Part shown: in pieces, positions 3,327 through 9,589 of the stretch | Layout of the letters: the number at the start of each line of letters is the position of its first letter | How positions within the stretch are numbered: position 1 is the first letter of the stretch | Source of the DNA: a virus | Lineage: Duplodnaviria; Heunggongvirae; Uroviricota; Caudoviricetes | DNA length: 33,311 bases | IMG/VR virus record: IMGVR_UViG_2778261498_000008 | Location: 1 to 33,311 of that record | Direction: 5' to 3' (one strand) | Position numbers and translations under genes: made by a program | The notes under the pieces: generated by a model | What the model saw: only the letters and a program-made list of their open reading frames with translations | The model's database searches: none | What the model was told of the DNA's origin: nothing

Positions 3327-3622
3327 ACGCCATCAACCTCCAGGAATTACGCGAACTGGCGATTGACCTGCAACGAATGGCAACGCATCAAAAATTACTG
3401 GCGTTTCGCGCAATGCTCTCGCCGTCTGCCGTGCTGGCACTGCTGGATGAGCTGGAGCACGCCAGAACCATGTCTCCAGCCATTCGCCTGGCGCTTCATC
3501 ATGAAATCGCTGATTTCTGCGCACCACTGGGTTCGCCTGGTGAACCAGAAACGCCGGAAGCAATGCAACGAGAGCTACTGCAACGCATCGACAAGGTTTT
3601 TGATTTCTTCCTTAACCAGTAA
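3323..3622 (+). CDS. Hypothetical early protein (99 aa)
   Basis: ATGA-coupled ORF in the early operon; no family recognised. Confidence 0.5.
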   Translation: MNAINLQELRELAIDLQRMATHQKLLAFRAMLSPSAVLALLDELEHARTMSPAIRLALHHEIADFCAPLGSPGEPETPEAMQRELLQRIDKVFDFFLNQ

Positions 3623-3633
3623 AGGACCGCGAT

Positions 3634-3837
3634 ATGAACAAAAAGACCTGGTTTCGCGCATACATGTGGGCGCTGGTATGCGTCCTCGTTTCTCTCATTC
3701 TGTATGCAGGACTACTCCCCCGAATGATTTCATCAGACAGCTCCTTCCTGGTATTGCTGGGCATTTTCATTGCCATGCTGTACCCGGCAGGCGTTGTTCG
3801 CCTTTTCAGTAAGTACATCAAGGAAATCAAACAATGA
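3634..3837 (+). CDS. Small integral membrane protein (67 aa, two predicted TM helices)
   Basis: ATG 3634 with AAAGGA upstream; two hydrophobic stretches; stop overlaps the start of the next gene (ATGA at 3834-3837). Confidence 0.55.
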   Translation: MNKKTWFRAYMWALVCVLVSLILYAGLLPRMISSDSSFLVLLGIFIAMLYPAGVVRLFSKYIKEIKQ

Positions 3838-4664
3838 AGAAATTCAAACTCTTTCAGATTCTCCCGCTTTTTGCTGCCATCCTGCTGGTTGGTTGCGATC
3901 GCGTTGAGCCAGGTAATGTGGGCATCAAAGTCAACAAACTGGGCGACGACAAAGGCGTCGGTGAAGTGGTTGGCGTTGGCCGCTACTGGACAGGCTGGAA
4001 TACAGAGGTTTACATCTTCCCAACCTTCAAACAAATGAAGACCTACGATGAGCCGTTCAGCTTTCAGATGAGTGACGGCACAACCATCGGCTATCACATC
4101 GGTGTGGCCTACAAGGTTGATCCATCCAAAGTTACTACAGTGTTTCAGACCTACCGCAAAGGCGTGGATGACATTACCGACACTGACCTGCGCCAGAAGA
4201 TCGCCGACGCACTCAACCGACTGGCCAGTAAAATGACCACCGATAAATTTATCGACGGTGGCAAGTCTGAACTGCTGGATTCAGCACTTAAAGACATTCA
4301 GGCAGAAATGACACCTATCGGCATTCAGGTAATGAGCCTCTCTTATGTCGGTAAACCGGAATACCCACCAACCGTTATCGACAGCATTAATGCCAAAGTC
4401 ACGGCAAACCAGAAAACTCTGCAACGCGAACAGGAAGTCAAGCAGCGCGAAGCAGAAGCCAACATGCTACGCGCAGAAGCAGCCGGACAGGCTGATGCCA
4501 TTCGCACAAAAGCCCAGGCTGAAGCCGACGCCATTCGTTTGCGCGGTGAAGCTCTGCGCCAGAACCCCGGCGTTATGGAGCTGGAAGCTATCAACAAATG
4601 GAACGGCACGCTGCCGCAATACATGACCAGTAATACCGCTGTTCCGTTTGTTCCGGTGAAGTAA
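3834..4664 (+). CDS. Lipoprotein with SPFH/band-7-like domain and C-terminal Ala/Glu-rich coiled coil
   Basis: N-terminus MKKFKLFQILPLFAAILLVGC has a signal peptide and lipobox (LVGC); the C-terminal REAEANMLRAEAAGQADAIRTKAQAEADAIR tract resembles the EA-repeat coiled coil of HflK/HflC/flotillin-type proteins. Domain assignment is by pattern recognition only. Confidence 0.75.
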   Translation: MKKFKLFQILPLFAAILLVGCDRVEPGNVGIKVNKLGDDKGVGEVVGVGRYWTGWNTEVYIFPTFKQMKTYDEPFSFQMSDGTTIGYHIGVAYKVDPSKVTTVFQTYRKGVDDITDTDLRQKIADALNRLASKMTTDKFIDGGKSELLDSALKDIQAEMTPIGIQVMSLSYVGKPEYPPTVIDSINAKVTANQKTLQREQEVKQREAEANMLRAEAAGQADAIRTKAQAEADAIRLRGEALRQNPGVMELEAINKWNGTLPQYMTSNTAVPFVPVK

Positions 4665-4670
4665 TTAAAC

Positions 4671-4715
4671 CCGGCCAGTGGAAACCGCTGGCCGGAGCAG
4701 CATCAGGATTTTTTA
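4671..4715 (+). terminator. Hairpin CCGGCCAG/CTGGCCGG followed at a distance by a T6 run
   Basis: 8-bp perfect stem (4671-4678 / 4688-4695) directly after the lipoprotein stop; the T-run is ~13 nt downstream, so not a canonical intrinsic terminator. Confidence 0.4.
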
Positions 4716-4810
4716 GTATGCCGTTCTCACAAAAAAACCGCTTGCCATGCCGCAATCAGTCAGGTTACATTTCCGCTGCACCTCATAAAACGGGTGCCGG
4801 GATTTCCACC

Positions 4811-4852
4811 CCGCTGACTATACACGCGCACAACCGCGCCAGCGGTTTTTTT
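4811..4852 (+). terminator. GC-rich hairpin (CCGCTG...CAGCGG with inner GCGC stem) followed immediately by T7
   Basis: Read directly: stem 4811-4816 / 4840-4845, then TTTTTTT at 4846-4852. Looks like an intrinsic terminator or the 3' end of a small RNA. Confidence 0.5.
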
Positions 4853-5031
4853 GTGCGTACCGTATCGCCACGTCTTTTTCGCGTCAGAATTATGGTGGGG
4901 CGTATGGGGCCGACTTCGGTCGGGCCGGGTTCGTGTATAGCCGGTTGTGGAAACCCTGTACGTCTCACCACCCCGAGTTTTCCACCTCTGGATGGTGAGT
5001 TTTCAAAACTTACTATACACGAGGCCACACC

Positions 5032-5262
5032 ATGGCAAACCGCAAACAGCACCGCGCTATCGCGGAGCGTCGTCACATCCAGACTGAAATCAACCGCAGA
5101 CTTTCCCGCGCATTCCGCGTCGCTAAAATCATGCACATCAATATGCTGCATGAGCGTAGCTGCGAACTTTCAAACCTCTATTCATCCGCTGTTTTCAGCT
5201 ATCTGGCGGATGATCTGCGCGAGCTTCAGCAGCTCATCCAGCAGCAAAACAAACTCCATTAA
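5032..5262 (+). CDS. Hypothetical basic protein (76 aa)
   Basis: ATG ORF after the long structured intergenic region; Arg/Lys-rich N-terminus; function unknown. Confidence 0.5.
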   Translation: MANRKQHRAIAERRHIQTEINRRLSRAFRVAKIMHINMLHERSCELSNLYSSAVFSYLADDLRELQQLIQQQNKLH

Positions 5263-5334
5263 TTCCTGTTCCGGGCCTTTCCTGCACCTTGCGGCGGGAG
5301 GCCTTCGCACATCTGTAGTAAAGAGAATTGCAGC

Positions 5335-5724
5335 ATGATTGACGCTCATGACTTCACAAGATGGGTGCGCACACAGGACACCCGTCTGGCTCCCGTTCTT
5401 CAGGGATTATTTGATCTTTACATCCGTGGTCGTGACAACAGAGCACGCACTACAAAACCGGAGAATGCGGACACCCTTTATTTCACAGTAGACGACTGCT
5501 ACCGCGTGGACTTCACACCACACGGGCTGGCGTTGCACTGCCTGACACCACACGGCGAATCACTGCTGGCGTATTACGACTCCCCGGCCTCCGTATTCGC
5601 GGCAATGCTGGCGCATCGCACTGCTGGCGGGTGTGCCTCGCTGAGTGAATACACCGCTGAATTTAACCGCCTTTCCGCCATCTTCTCGCAGGAGTGGCAG
5701 CGCGTGACGGGATACCAGCCATGA
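5335..5724 (+). CDS. Hypothetical protein (129 aa) immediately upstream of, and coupled to, gene A
   Basis: Stop overlaps the A start (ATGA at 5721-5724). Confidence 0.5.
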   Translation: MIDAHDFTRWVRTQDTRLAPVLQGLFDLYIRGRDNRARTTKPENADTLYFTVDDCYRVDFTPHGLALHCLTPHGESLLAYYDSPASVFAAMLAHRTAGGCASLSEYTAEFNRLSAIFSQEWQRVTGYQP

Positions 5725-8528
5725 GCGAGTTTGCATGGAGCTGGAATGAACCACGGCCAGCCATTGATCCGGCCAGATTTACGGAGCGCAGGCAGGAAAC
5801 TGAAACCGACCTGCAACGCGCCATCCGTTACTACCTTGAGGCGGACAAAAGGGCACAGGAAGAACAGGAAGCGAAGGAAGAAGCCTTTTTCGCACAATCC
5901 GCCATGGGTAAAAAACTCATGGCATCCCTTGAGGAAGCCGGACAGCGTGAAAAGCTGGCACAGAGCATCATCAGTAAGCGCCGGGCAACAGAACAAGACC
6001 CGGTAGCCCGTGCCTTTGCCACACTAAAGGCACTACCTGTTTATCTGCGTGAACCACTGAGCCGCCACCTCTCTTTCCTGCGCAAAAAACAGGAAGCCGA
6101 TCGCCAGAAAGGTAAAAAGAGCTGGCAGGCGGAACGCTATGCACGCGGACCCCTGCGCAAAATATTCGAACGTCTGGATCGCACTGACGGACGCTGGCTG
6201 ACACCGGGTTATCGCTCCCTTGCCGGGCGCGAACGCCTGGACGATTTGCTTTACCTGCCGCAGCTCAACAAGCACCAGATACAGACGCTGGCCACCATGA
6301 CCGCGGCGATGTTCAGCAGCACCTTCGAAACACTCTGCGATGGCTTTGGTGCCAGAGATGGCGAGCTGACCATGGATGTAATGTTGAAGGCTTACCGGAT
6401 GCTGGCTCGTATCGCATTACGCCTGCACATCATGCCGCCACATTACGAAGCCCTGAACAAGAGCGAACCGGATACGGAACTGCTGCCGGGCGCAATCCTT
6501 CGCCTGACCTGTGCGGACTGGTGGAAACGCAAACTGTGGCTGTTACGTTGCGAGTGGAGAGAAGAACAACTCCGCGCCGCCTGTCTGGTTTCCAGAAAAA
6601 CATCGCCTTATCTGAGCCAGGACGCGTTAAGCGAGTTTCGCGCACAGCGCGAGAAAACACGCGATTTCCTGAAAAGTTTCATGCTGGAAAACGAAGACGG
6701 GTTCACGATTGATCTCGAGACAGTGTATTACGCGGGAGTAAGTAACCCGGTTCACCGTAAGGCAGAAATGATGGCCACCATGAAGGGGCTGGAACTTCTG
6801 GCCGAAGCCCGTGGTGACAAAGCGGTGTTTCTGACTGTCACCTGCCCGTCAAAATACCACGCAACAACGGAGAACGGTCATCCGAACCCCAAATGGAACG
6901 GGGCCACCATGCGCGACTCCAGCGACTACCTGGTTAACACGTTTTTTGCGGCGGTCCGCAAAAAACTGAACCGCGACGGCCTGCGCTGGTATGGCATCCG
7001 CACGGTGGAGCCTCACCATGACGGCACCGTACACTGGCATATGATGGTCTTTGCCCATCCGGAAGAAATCGACACCATTGTGTCCCACACCCGCGATATT
7101 GCCATTCAGGAAGATCGTCACGAGCTGGGCGATGATATTACTCCGCGCTTTAAGGCGGAGTATGTAGACGGCTCAAAAGGCACGCCAACCAGCTACATCG
7201 CCACCTACATCGGAAAGAACCTGGACAGCCGCGCCGCGGATGGCATCGACCCGAAAACGGGCAAACCACGCGTTGACCACGAAACCGGAAAATCAATGGC
7301 CGAGAGCGTGGAGCGCGCCATCGGCTGGGCGCGCCTTCACCGGGTCCGCCAGTTCCAGTTCTTTGGCATCCCCTCCCGTCAGGTGTGGCGTGAACTCCGC
7401 CGCCTTGCCAGCCAGATGGCACGCAACCCGGAAGGCCCGCAACGGCTGAAGGATGACGCAATGGATGCGGTACTCGCTGCCGCTGATGCCGGATGTTTTG
7501 CCACCTATATAGAGAAACAGGGCGGCGTACTTGTTCCACGCAAGGACTACCTGATTCGCACCGCCTACGACCTCGCCGATGAGCTGAACGATTACGGCGA
7601 ACAGAGCGTACAGATTTACGGGATCTGGTCACCACTCATCGGGGAATCCTCCCGTGTGTGCACGCATCCGGATAACTGGAAGCTGGTAAGACGTAAACCG
7701 GAAGCGGAAGACAGCGCCCGCGAAAATGGTTTTGACCTTCAGGGCGGCCCTGCCGCCCCTTGGACTCGTGGCAATAACTGTCCCCGTGTACAGGAAACGG
7801 ACAACAACGGGACAGAACAGCCGGAAGAACGGTCAGCACCGTGGCCGCAGCTCCCTGACGGCGTTGAAGTGAACGAATGGATGCGCTCACTGAAACGGCA
7901 CGAACGCCGGGCGCTGATGCGTTCGCTTCGGCTTCGTGACAAACAGGCAAAAAACAGCAGTGATGAAATGCAGAGCTGGACACAGAGCCGCAAACAGCAG
8001 CGGCCTTTGCCTGATAACCACGAATTACTCGCTAAAGAATGGCGGGAATCTGCCGAATCTCTCGGCCTGCATATCGGTGAACAGCAGATGCAGCACCTGT
8101 TACGGGGCGGCAGCCTGTACGTTGACGGCAGCATCATTGCACCGCAGGGATTTGAAATTGTACGCAAACCGGATACCCGCCCGGACAGCCGAATCACGCA
8201 GCTCTGGCAGCGCCTGAGCCGTAATCACGGCGTAAGCAGCACAGAGATCCGCCATAACCCGGTCGCCAGCTATCTGGAACAACTGGGGGCATCAGACCCC
8301 GAAGCCGCCGCACGTCTGGCATCCACACTTCAGCAGGACCAGAACACCATGAAAACCCCCGTTACCGTGCTTTCTGACATGTTGCGCGCCATCCGTGACG
8401 CAGAGCACGCACAGAGAATCAGTGAAACCACTGAGCGCGCCCACCGCAAAGCAGACCTGCTGCGGGGTAGCCTGACCAGTGGAAACAAAAAAACAGACAG
8501 AAACGGGATTCACAAATCCCGTAAATGA
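5721..8528 (+). CDS. A: Rolling-circle replication initiation endonuclease (P2 gpA family)
   Basis: Contains an HUH-type metal-binding motif (HWHMMVFAHP) and a tandem-tyrosine segment (SYIATYIGKN) typical of gpA-type nickases; sits after the early operon as in P2. ATG 5721 chosen over the upstream in-frame track start (5694). Confidence 0.9.
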   Translation: MSEFAWSWNEPRPAIDPARFTERRQETETDLQRAIRYYLEADKRAQEEQEAKEEAFFAQSAMGKKLMASLEEAGQREKLAQSIISKRRATEQDPVARAFATLKALPVYLREPLSRHLSFLRKKQEADRQKGKKSWQAERYARGPLRKIFERLDRTDGRWLTPGYRSLAGRERLDDLLYLPQLNKHQIQTLATMTAAMFSSTFETLCDGFGARDGELTMDVMLKAYRMLARIALRLHIMPPHYEALNKSEPDTELLPGAILRLTCADWWKRKLWLLRCEWREEQLRAACLVSRKTSPYLSQDALSEFRAQREKTRDFLKSFMLENEDGFTIDLETVYYAGVSNPVHRKAEMMATMKGLELLAEARGDKAVFLTVTCPSKYHATTENGHPNPKWNGATMRDSSDYLVNTFFAAVRKKLNRDGLRWYGIRTVEPHHDGTVHWHMMVFAHPEEIDTIVSHTRDIAIQEDRHELGDDITPRFKAEYVDGSKGTPTSYIATYIGKNLDSRAADGIDPKTGKPRVDHETGKSMAESVERAIGWARLHRVRQFQFFGIPSRQVWRELRRLASQMARNPEGPQRLKDDAMDAVLAAADAGCFATYIEKQGGVLVPRKDYLIRTAYDLADELNDYGEQSVQIYGIWSPLIGESSRVCTHPDNWKLVRRKPEAEDSARENGFDLQGGPAAPWTRGNNCPRVQETDNNGTEQPEERSAPWPQLPDGVEVNEWMRSLKRHERRALMRSLRLRDKQAKNSSDEMQSWTQSRKQQRPLPDNHELLAKEWRESAESLGLHIGEQQMQHLLRGGSLYVDGSIIAPQGFEIVRKPDTRPDSRITQLWQRLSRNHGVSSTEIRHNPVASYLEQLGASDPEAAARLASTLQQDQNTMKTPVTVLSDMLRAIRDAEHAQRISETTERAHRKADLLRGSLTSGNKKTDRNGIHKSRK

Positions 8529-8629: not shown

Positions 8630-9589
8630 ATGAAAATTCACATCGACGACGGCTCCACCAACATCAAGCTGGCATGGACTGAGAACGGCGAACGCCGCAA
8701 CGCCATCAGCCCGAACAGCTTCAAGTCGGAATGGTCTGCGCCGTTCGGTGGCACGCAGCCCGCGAACTACATGCTTGATGGCGTGCGCTATGGTTTTGAT
8801 CCGGTCAGCGATCGCTTTGTCCAGACGACCGACACGCAATACCAATACAGCGATGTGAATGTCATTGCCATTCATCACGCGCTGGTCAAATCAGGCATCA
8901 CGCCACAGGAGGTGGATGTGGTTGTCACCCTGCCACTGAGCGAGTATTTCGACACAAACGCACAGCCGGACATGGCCAACATCAACCGCAAAAAAGCGAA
9001 CGTTATGCGCCCGGTGGAGTACCAGAACGGCGAAGCATTCACTATCCGTAACGTGCGGGTTATGCCTGAATCCATTCCGGCTGGCTTTAAGGCACTGGCT
9101 GACATGAGTCCGTTTGAATCCCTGCTGATTGTGGATTTGGGCGGAACCACGCTGGATGTGGCAAAAGTTCAGGGGCAACTGGCAGGTATCAGCCAGGTGT
9201 TTTGCGATCCACACGTAGGCGTTTCTCTGATGGCCGATGCCGTACTGTCGGTGATGGCCACTAACGGTATGCGCACCAGTCACCACATCGCCAATACCAT
9301 TATCGAACATCGCCATGATGAAGCCTGGCTGCGCCAGCACATCCACAATGACGCGCATTACGCCAGCCTGATGGCGGTTATTCGTGAAAAGGAAGAAACA
9401 CTGAAACAACGCGTGATCCGCGCGCTGGCGGGTTTTTCGGGTTACGGGCGGGTGATGGTTGTCGGTGGCGGGGCGGAGATTGTGGCACCCGCTATCCGCG
9501 AAGCCTGCGGAGTTAATGCGAATTTCATCGCGGACGGGGTGCCACAGTTTGCTCTGGTTAATGGGCTGTACGCAATGGACAAGGAGTAA
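8630..9589 (+). CDS. parM: Actin-like segregation ATPase, ParM/StbA family
   Basis: N-terminus MKIHIDDGSTNIKLAW...ISPNSFK...YSDVNVIAIHHAL and later VMPESIPAG, LIVDLGGTTLDV and VMVVGGGAE closely parallel plasmid R1 ParM as recalled; AAGGAAAAG SD upstream. Confidence 0.85.
   Translation: MKIHIDDGSTNIKLAWTENGERRNAISPNSFKSEWSAPFGGTQPANYMLDGVRYGFDPVSDRFVQTTDTQYQYSDVNVIAIHHALVKSGITPQEVDVVVTLPLSEYFDTNAQPDMANINRKKANVMRPVEYQNGEAFTIRNVRVMPESIPAGFKALADMSPFESLLIVDLGGTTLDVAKVQGQLAGISQVFCDPHVGVSLMADAVLSVMATNGMRTSHHIANTIIEHRHDEAWLRQHIHNDAHYASLMAVIREKEETLKQRVIRALAGFSGYGRVMVVGGGAEIVAPAIREACGVNANFIADGVPQFALVNGLYAMDKE

Follow-up and report, generated by a model that had tools for sequence, protein, structure and literature searches.

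The window analyzed here, meaning the whole stretch of 33,311 nucleotides (nt) of the IMG/VR virus record IMGVR_UViG_2778261498_000008, represents a P88-like phage of the genus Xuanwuvirus, family Peduoviridae (P2-family), and is 94% identical to P88 across positions 4600-5340. Its gene set includes an integrase, a P2 C-type repressor, Cox, gpA, and a ParM-like gene. The subject of this analysis is a gap of 370 base pairs (bp) flanked by an SPFH/Band-7 gene (3834-4664) and by a gene encoding a protein of 76 amino acids (aa; 5032-5262). A first-pass annotation, made from the letters alone, had interpreted this position as a small RNA gene and/or as a leader regulating the 76-aa gene, and this proposal was borne out by two RNA families scoring above their Rfam cut-offs, by a repeated box abutting the Shine-Dalgarno sequence of the 76-aa gene, and by compensatory pairing of the loop of one of the RNAs. 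With a probability of roughly 80%, as judged from sequence comparison, the region constitutes a self-contained RNA immunity/anti-immunity cassette of the P1 c4 / P4 CI / N15 type controlling an anti-repressor.

Two RNA genes and a candidate promoter

The whole window was scanned against Rfam at the curated gathering cut-offs. Exactly two matches were obtained, both within the 370-bp region and each spanning its full model, so that the search against RNA families recommended previously returned isrK and C4. The first match, on the plus strand like all elements of the region described below, is an IsrK-like small RNA (Rfam RF01394 isrK) at 4778-4852, scoring 63.5 bits against a cut-off of 50 (E-value 1.6e-11, model positions 1-77 of 77). 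Its architecture comprises two hairpins, a single-stranded linker, and a Rho-independent terminator (4832-4847 followed by U7), the latter corresponding to the canonical one of two terminator-like hairpins recorded earlier. The minimum-free-energy fold (-24.7 kcal/mol) retains hairpin 1 and the terminator region, but hairpin 2 with only two pairs. The predicted transcript is about 75 nt long (4778-4852), shorter than the approximately 100-130 nt anticipated beforehand. The IsrK-like RNA is regarded as the counterpart of P4 seqA and of the P1 a1b1 leader.

The second match is a C4/CI-type antisense RNA (Rfam RF01695) at 4888-4975, scoring 77.3 bits against a cut-off of 45 (E-value 1.1e-13, model positions 1-87 of 87). 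It features a long, tRNA-like closing stem with a 3' CACCACC, the UUCG hairpin already seen in the first pass (4910-4923), and a recognition hairpin 2 with a 12-nt loop. Its minimum-free-energy fold equals the Rfam consensus structure (-44.1 kcal/mol, z-score -3.4). Furthermore, the CTCACCA/TGGTGAG stem reported previously is present as an alternative hairpin at 4964-4999 (-21.1 kcal/mol), formed by the downstream segment GGAUGGUGAG and the 3' strand of the C4 closing stem; a segment equivalent to this complement was also found by eye in P4, N15, and a P1-like phage. For the read-through RNA 4778-5045, the minimum-free-energy fold joins both RNAs in cis through the repeated boxes described in the following section (a1b1 with a'b'), and this cis fold resembles 'structure A' of Gifsy-1 isrK (PMC4825925).

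The only promoter-like site within 4400-5400 is a sigma-70-like candidate matching the consensus (TTGCCA-18-TACATT, 4742-4771), which is preceded by an A7 tract and ends 7 nt upstream of the IsrK 5' end. In each of the 16 diverse modules compared, P4 included, a -35/-10 pair keeps this spacing to the 5' end of IsrK, and the predicted promoter is placed as the positional homologue of P4 PLE. No further promoter-like sites were found between 4771 and gpA. The A7 tract upstream of the -35 element also takes part in a 28-nt inverted repeat (4718-4745 / 4838-4865, 82% complementary), the other arm being the 3' half of the IsrK terminator plus U7. This repeat may allow transcripts from the early promoter to bypass the IsrK terminator, or, alternatively, the A-tract may represent an UP element; the complementarity rests largely on the A7/U7 match, and no equivalent was seen by eye in P4 or Stx-phage sequences.

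The other hairpin that had been described as terminator-like (4671-4695, -23.2 kcal/mol, z-score -4.3) was confirmed as a hairpin but is non-canonical, the nearest T-run being 15 nt away with no adjacent U-tract. It lies at the 3' end of the SPFH/Band-7 lipoprotein gene (3834-4664), which looks like cargo, being present in the window and in P88 and absent from 705R2, P88_4B11, and Shae_phiSM, the homology of which resumes at approximately 4728. Because the homology of these SPFH-less relatives starts only there, the hairpin is assigned to the SPFH gene, appearing as the boundary mark of this cargo gene outside the RNA module, and the module therefore begins with its promoter. The hairpin also contains GTGGAAACC at 4678-4686, the same 9-mer as the C4 segment at 4947-4955; this copy is mostly buried in the stem and probably a coincidence.

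Six interleaved boxes and their covariation in relatives

The decamer ACTATACACG, for which three copies had been reported, occurs exactly at 4817-4826 and 5012-5021, in agreement with the first-pass annotation. The inverted copy assigned to 4931-4940 is likewise present, but it is exact only as the 9-mer CGTGTATAG at 4932-4940, matching the decamer in nine of ten positions. Towards the downstream copy, its complementarity extends to 11 pairs, formed by TTCGTGTATAG (4930-4940) with CTATACACGAG (5013-5023). Allowing up to one mismatch, this box, designated b, has just three matches in the 33 kb, all of them within 205 nt, while shuffled sequences yield 0.79 on average and reached three matches in one of 100 shuffles. 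It is absent elsewhere in the window, and thus no further C4 target was indicated by a b match. In addition, a second triplicated box, designated a, had been overlooked: TTTCCAC at 4803-4809 and 4979-4985, with GTGGAAA at 4947-4953. Its 7-mers occur 12 times in the window (4.7 expected by chance), and four of these are located in or beside the module.

Each of the six sites is embedded in an RNA element. Box a1 (UUUCCAC, 4803-4809) is situated in the loop of IsrK hairpin 2 and is complementary to a' (GUGGAAA, 4947-4953), a covarying, single-stranded segment of the C4 multiloop. Box b1 (4817-4826) occupies the single-stranded linker of the IsrK-like RNA, its CUAUACACG (4818-4826) being complementary to 4932-4940, and b' (UUCGUGUAUAG, 4930-4940) lies in the loop of C4 hairpin 2, pairing with both b1 and b2 in every relative. 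Box a2 (4979-4985) lies in the loop of the hairpin directly downstream of C4 (4964-4999). Finally, b2 (5012-5024) runs into the Shine-Dalgarno sequence GAGG (5021-5024) of the 76-aa gene, and the 11-bp b':b2 duplex (4930-4940 / 5013-5023) covers the GAG of this element, 7 nt before the ATG at 5032. The resulting order a1 b1 b' a' a2 b2 is interleaved, and a single crossover is therefore unable to swap one box type only. An a1b1 / a'b' / a2b2 layout has been described for P1/P7 c4 (summarised in PMC12197685), and the decamer is the b recognition element of a system of the P1 c4 / P4 CI / N15 type.

To follow the boxes in other phages, another 83 loci with a gene for a close relative of the 76-aa protein were collected, and 87 modules were typed; covariation was counted on an alignment of 40 distinct epsilon-linked modules. 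All three copies of each box co-vary across these 40 relatives. The a1:a' and b1:b' helices are 100% paired, with compensatory changes in four of seven and seven of nine pairs, respectively, so that jointly 11 of 16 pairs are compensatory, all cells being paired (covariation score 0.692 vs 0.127 in shuffled alignments; 27-52% of cells paired in slid controls). The b':b2 helix is 95.5% paired and shows six compensatory pairs; together with a':a2, 97.2% of the cells are paired and 10 of 18 pairs are compensatory (score 0.597 vs 0.132 shuffled; slid controls 41-52%). G-U wobbles are tolerated in both pairing sets, that is, between IsrK and C4 and between C4 and its target. Since the Rfam scores exceed the curated cut-offs and the three-way covariation is strong, the organization of the region is beyond chance. 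The same arrangement was recovered in all 16 diverse modules, each of which possesses an a' 7-mer and a b' 7-12-mer with complements at fixed positions, both within IsrK and shortly before the first gene downstream, while the box sequences themselves differ between the phages.

Among the 87 modules, five a-types and 13 b-types were distinguished in 17 combinations, and the same b box was encountered beside different a boxes, indicating reassortment. The pair carried by the window (a = TTTCCAC, b = CTATACACG) occurs once in this set; elsewhere, its box type was found in one viral contig and in 15 Escherichia coli genomes that are at least 99% identical across the module. P88 has the same a box as the window and CAACTACAG as b box. 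Where two modules originated from one genome, the b boxes differed in three of four cases.

The target gene, its neighbours, and the proposed control

The gene directly downstream of the boxes (5032-5262, plus strand) encodes a homologue of the P4 epsilon derepression/anti-repressor protein, matching Pfam PF25738 Derepression with 29.5 bits against a cut-off of 27 and P4 epsilon with 29% identity over 66 residues in BLASTP (E-value 1e-8). Its reading frame displays a coding pattern, variable sites being enriched at third codon positions (24/22/41 for first, second, and third), and a comparison with solved structures gave no meaningful match for the protein. The presumed partner, a P2 C-type immunity repressor, is encoded on the minus strand at 1057-1374; it matches the P2 C structures 2L49/2XCJ (E-value 5.4e-25) and conserves the residues equivalent to P2 C L63, W64, T67, and I70. 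P4 E has been described as an anti-repressor that binds the C repressor of P2, and T67 and I70 of C are implicated in this binding (PMC2995052). We infer from these homologies that the 76-aa protein would inactivate the phage's own C repressor or that of related prophages.

Further downstream follow a 129-aa open reading frame (ORF) of unassigned function (5335-5724, plus strand) and the gpA replication endonuclease gene (5694-8528, plus strand; Pfam Phage_GPA, 435 bits), and this synteny is conserved in P88, 705R2, P88_4B11, and Shae_phiSM. The 129-aa gene has no Pfam or NCBIfam match and retrieves only 'unknown function' from PHROGs. No terminator was detected between 5262 and 5694, and the region of the 76-aa gene is biased towards C over G (C/G 1.3-1.8). 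By analogy with P1 and P4, the 129-aa ORF and gpA may be under polar control by the RNA module. A ParM/StbA-type plasmid segregation gene (8630-9589) was observed after gpA, with a partition protein next to it in P88, which may hint that these P2-family phages are able to persist as plasmids.

Taken as a circuit, these elements suggest the following course. The constitutive-looking promoter would start a transcript near 4778, and the terminator (4832-4852) would stop most transcripts, yielding the IsrK-like RNA of about 75 nt that presents a1 and b1. Read-through transcripts would carry the C4-like RNA (4888-4975), which, by analogy with P1 and P4, may be excised by RNase P. Processing by this enzyme is established for the C4/CI RNAs of both phages. 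The liberated C4 would pair through a' and b' with a2 (hairpin loop 4979-4985) and b2 (5013-5023) on the mRNA entering the 76-aa gene, and the b' duplex, by occluding the first Shine-Dalgarno bases, would block translation of the epsilon-like anti-repressor. In P1/P7, c4 has likewise been reported to prevent anti-repressor synthesis through pairing around the ribosome-binding site (PMC12197685). Again following P1 and P4, the untranslated, C-rich mRNA might then be terminated by Rho ahead of the 129-aa gene and gene A.

The IsrK-like RNA, showing the same boxes as the target, would compete for C4, in cis within the unprocessed read-through transcript and in trans as the short RNA, and an excess of it would relieve repression, so that the decoy may set the threshold of the switch. 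It is read as a decoy because of the cis a1b1:a'b' fold, the boxes it has in common with the target, and the activation exerted by IsrK of Gifsy-1, which stimulates translation of a downstream anti-repressor in trans (PMC4825925). Hershko-Shalev and colleagues also named P4 seqA/CI (seqA / CI / seqC) as the structural homologue of IsrK (PMC4825925). The freed anti-repressor would finally inactivate the P2 C-type repressor and thus throw the lytic switch of the prophage. P88 itself was recovered following mitomycin C treatment (PMC5285337). Control by LexA and the SOS response was considered and rejected: a CTGT-N8-ACAG-like site is absent near the module, and the window in total contains 11 such sites, 10 being expected.

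Several observations weigh against this interpretation. The homology to epsilon is weak (29% identity, and a Pfam score just 2.5 bits over the cut-off), and the anti-repressor gene is the first gene behind the boxes, lacking the small leader ORF of the icd/kil/orf45 type that precedes the regulator in P1, P4, and Gifsy-1. Reports also differ on the direction of the IsrK effect, P4 seqA having been described to aid termination and Gifsy-1 IsrK to activate. Co-folding alone fails to predict the loop-loop complex; energies of -20 to -22 kcal/mol were calculated for pairing of the b' loop with either IsrK or the target, a figure which is not used as evidence, the loop-loop complex being beyond such predictions. 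Moreover, the module resides in the middle of the early operon, and control of gene A, rather than of the anti-repressor, might be its main task.

Elaborated further, this last point leads to a P4-style replication immunity, in which transcription would be terminated prematurely ahead of gene A and the epsilon-like gene would merely be the first in the operon. Such a role is possible, though clearly the less probable one, and it is compatible with anti-repressor control. The order promoter-seqA-CI-seqC-...-epsilon-...-replication gene is that of the P4 left operon, the module was always found between the early genes and gpA in the P88-like phages examined, and no other promoter-like site separates 4771 from gpA; yet the phage already possesses a P2-type C/Cox switch over its early operon, b2 is placed exactly on the ribosome-binding site of the epsilon-like gene and not near A, and the stretch 5262-5694 is devoid of a detectable terminator. 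Somewhat more doubtful is a leader acting exclusively in cis, as modelled for Gifsy-1, where the short IsrK-like RNA would be the sole species active in trans, as an activator, and C4 would never become a free repressor. While the predicted cis fold of the read-through RNA and the mutational data from Gifsy-1, which fit the cis structures A and B, agree with this model, the C4 match is full-length and, as is typical of processed P1/P4 RNAs, has a 3' CCACC and a tRNA-like stem, and a stable processed RNA, STnc1160, exists downstream of IsrK in Salmonella. The cis model also needs no pairing between C4 and the target, whereas the covariation of b':b2 and a':a2 is as strong as that of the IsrK pairings.

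Two further explanations, in which the region does not act as RNA, are far less probable. A box of 9-10 bp present three times in 205 bp could be taken as a set of DNA operators for the C repressor or the 76-aa protein. This is highly improbable given that two copies are direct and one is inverted, each inside an RNA structural element, that P4 E reportedly cannot bind DNA by itself, and that the binding sites of P2 C-type repressors are direct repeats at Pe, a long way from the module. Furthermore, the boxes vary freely among close relatives with complementarity maintained, and the tolerated G-U wobbles, meaningless for a DNA site, identify them as RNA-RNA pairing elements; the suggested tests of DNA binding by the 76-aa protein or the C repressor would therefore not be the informative ones. 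The ORFs crossing the region, formerly dismissed as low-complexity, turned out to be rather long (206 aa on the plus and 122 aa on the minus strand), without a coding signature. The longer one (4718-5338) spans the promoter, both RNA genes, and, in another frame, the entire 76-aa gene. It is an annotated coding sequence (CDS) in NC_049391 ('transcriptional regulator') and ON470623, a 205-aa version being listed in some records and the product being called 'hypothetical protein' in others; its stop codon and the start of the 129-aa gene overlap (ATGA, 5335-5338), and the frame from the AUG in C4 (4892) is open in 82 of the 87 relatives. That it is a gene is nevertheless very unlikely, and this reading was rejected on the substitution pattern despite the conservation of the open frame: within the 76-aa overlap, variable sites are distributed 22/41/24 with an excess at second positions, and 23 synonymous variants compare with 79 non-synonymous ones. 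In addition, the upstream part is accounted for base by base by the two RNA families with their compensatory changes, the frame is broken in four relatives, and long alternative-frame ORFs of 150-170 codons are common elsewhere in the window.

Distribution and comparison with known systems

Of 5426 complete E. coli genomes, 1173 carried the module, at 1347 places in total and in as many as four copies per genome. STEC316 is 100% identical to the window over the module (4728-5040). The tandem of isrK and C4 was found in every comparison module examined, including those of P88, three other Xuanwuviruses, Stx phages, ST64B, mEp460, N15, a P1-like phage (upstream of ant), P4 (with the C4 match inside the cI immunity region), and others; no isrK or C4 match was obtained in the classical relatives P2 and 186. 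Two other Rfam matches were noted in comparison phages, namely sRNA-Xcc1 (79.6 bits; 3524-3607 of that locus) between the C4 target gene and the anti-repressor gene of Shigella phage Ss-VASD, and ryfA (134.6 bits; 1072-1370 of that locus) in Yersinia phage vB_YpM_44. A contig labelled Vagococcus sp. WN89Y, a Gram-positive organism (NZ_JBQPOM010000071.1), carries an enterobacterial P88-like module with a 76-aa protein of 84% identity, which likely reflects contamination or a mislabelled assembly. Regarding annotation, one GenBank record already lists both RNAs, and one RefSeq record that was opened contains the 'derepression protein' CDS only, leaving the RNA gene unannotated. A literature search did not find a description of the module in P88-like phages, although absence from that search is not proof of its being undescribed.

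The module clearly belongs to the c4/CI family of antisense immunity systems, within a phage lineage for which no description of it was found. The class of mechanism has been known since the work on P1 and P4 in the 1990s, and existing knowledge is not overturned. What is gained is that an unannotated or mis-annotated stretch of 370 bp becomes a defined regulatory cassette, occurring in about one fifth of complete E. coli genomes, and that a route of induction is suggested for P88-like prophages of the P2-family, in which an epsilon-type anti-repressor would be held by an antisense RNA. P2 itself is not known to have an anti-repressor. The main interest lies in the connection of the P4 satellite's immunity and epsilon genes with a helper-type phage of the P2-family, and in the natural diversity of the specificity boxes: the covarying a and b boxes represent a natural mutant series for studying antisense specificity and heteroimmunity, and the architecture common with P4 bears on the origin of the satellite's immunity and derepression genes. 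More speculatively, P88-like helper-type phages might use the P4 toolkit (CI-type RNA immunity plus epsilon) as a second, RNA-barcoded immunity layer, an idea to which we give only limited credence. If it holds, this layer would gate derepression of the P2 C-type repressor as well as entry into replication through gene A, the five a-types and 13 b-types would correspond to heteroimmunity classes allowing several prophages to coexist or cross-induce in one cell, and P4 would have acquired its immunity/derepression cassette from, or exchanged it with, relatives of its helpers.

Among the known systems, P4 matches the window in the order of the promoter, the isrK-type leader, the C4/CI RNA, the target boxes, the epsilon-family gene, and the replication gene, as well as in the promoter position, and its own RNAs score 60.8 bits for isrK and 74.9 bits for C4. 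However, P4 is a satellite, whereas the window represents a complete phage of the P2-family equipped with a C/Cox switch of its own, and the spacer between leader and C4 measures 35 nt in the window and 107 nt in P4. The replication gene is gpA instead of the P4 alpha primase, and the 129-aa gene shows no similarity to P4 orf151. In the window, the epsilon homologue follows the target boxes directly, with no kil/eta-type ORF between C4 and the epsilon-like gene; in P4, kil/eta-type genes lie between the two.

The immI region of P1/P7 (c4, icd-ant) resembles the window in having two boxes in three copies each and a b2 placed at the ribosome-binding site of the first gene that follows. In the P1-like phage, the same box pattern precedes ant, the anti-repressor being the regulated output. 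In contrast to the 76-aa epsilon-type protein of the window, Icd and a large Ant are encoded downstream in P1/P7, and the box sequences are unrelated.

The isrK-orf45-anrP locus of Gifsy-1 (Salmonella; IsrK, STnc1160) belongs to the same Rfam isrK family and likewise has an anti-repressor gene downstream; a short terminated RNA and a read-through mRNA arise from one promoter, and the middle of IsrK is complementary to downstream RNA. For this family of Hfq-binding RNAs, binding of Hfq and activation of downstream translation in trans by the short RNA have been demonstrated for Gifsy-1 only. It differs in that Gifsy-1 is lambdoid, AnrP acts on antQ, and IsrK activates via translation of orf45, whereas the frame at the equivalent AUG of the window (4892) comprises 148 codons without a coding signature.

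In N15, a small processed RNA of the anti-immunity (immC) region controls the antA-C operon. This phage has isrK and C4 in tandem, with the boxes in the same pattern ahead of gp32, but it is a linear plasmid prophage with other downstream genes. Phage 186, finally, is a P2-family phage that, like the one analyzed here, adds an anti-repressor (Tum) to the C/CI switch. Its Tum is gated by a LexA-repressed promoter, and the phage has no isrK/C4 match, whereas in the window, where no LexA-like box lies nearby, the gate would be an antisense RNA.

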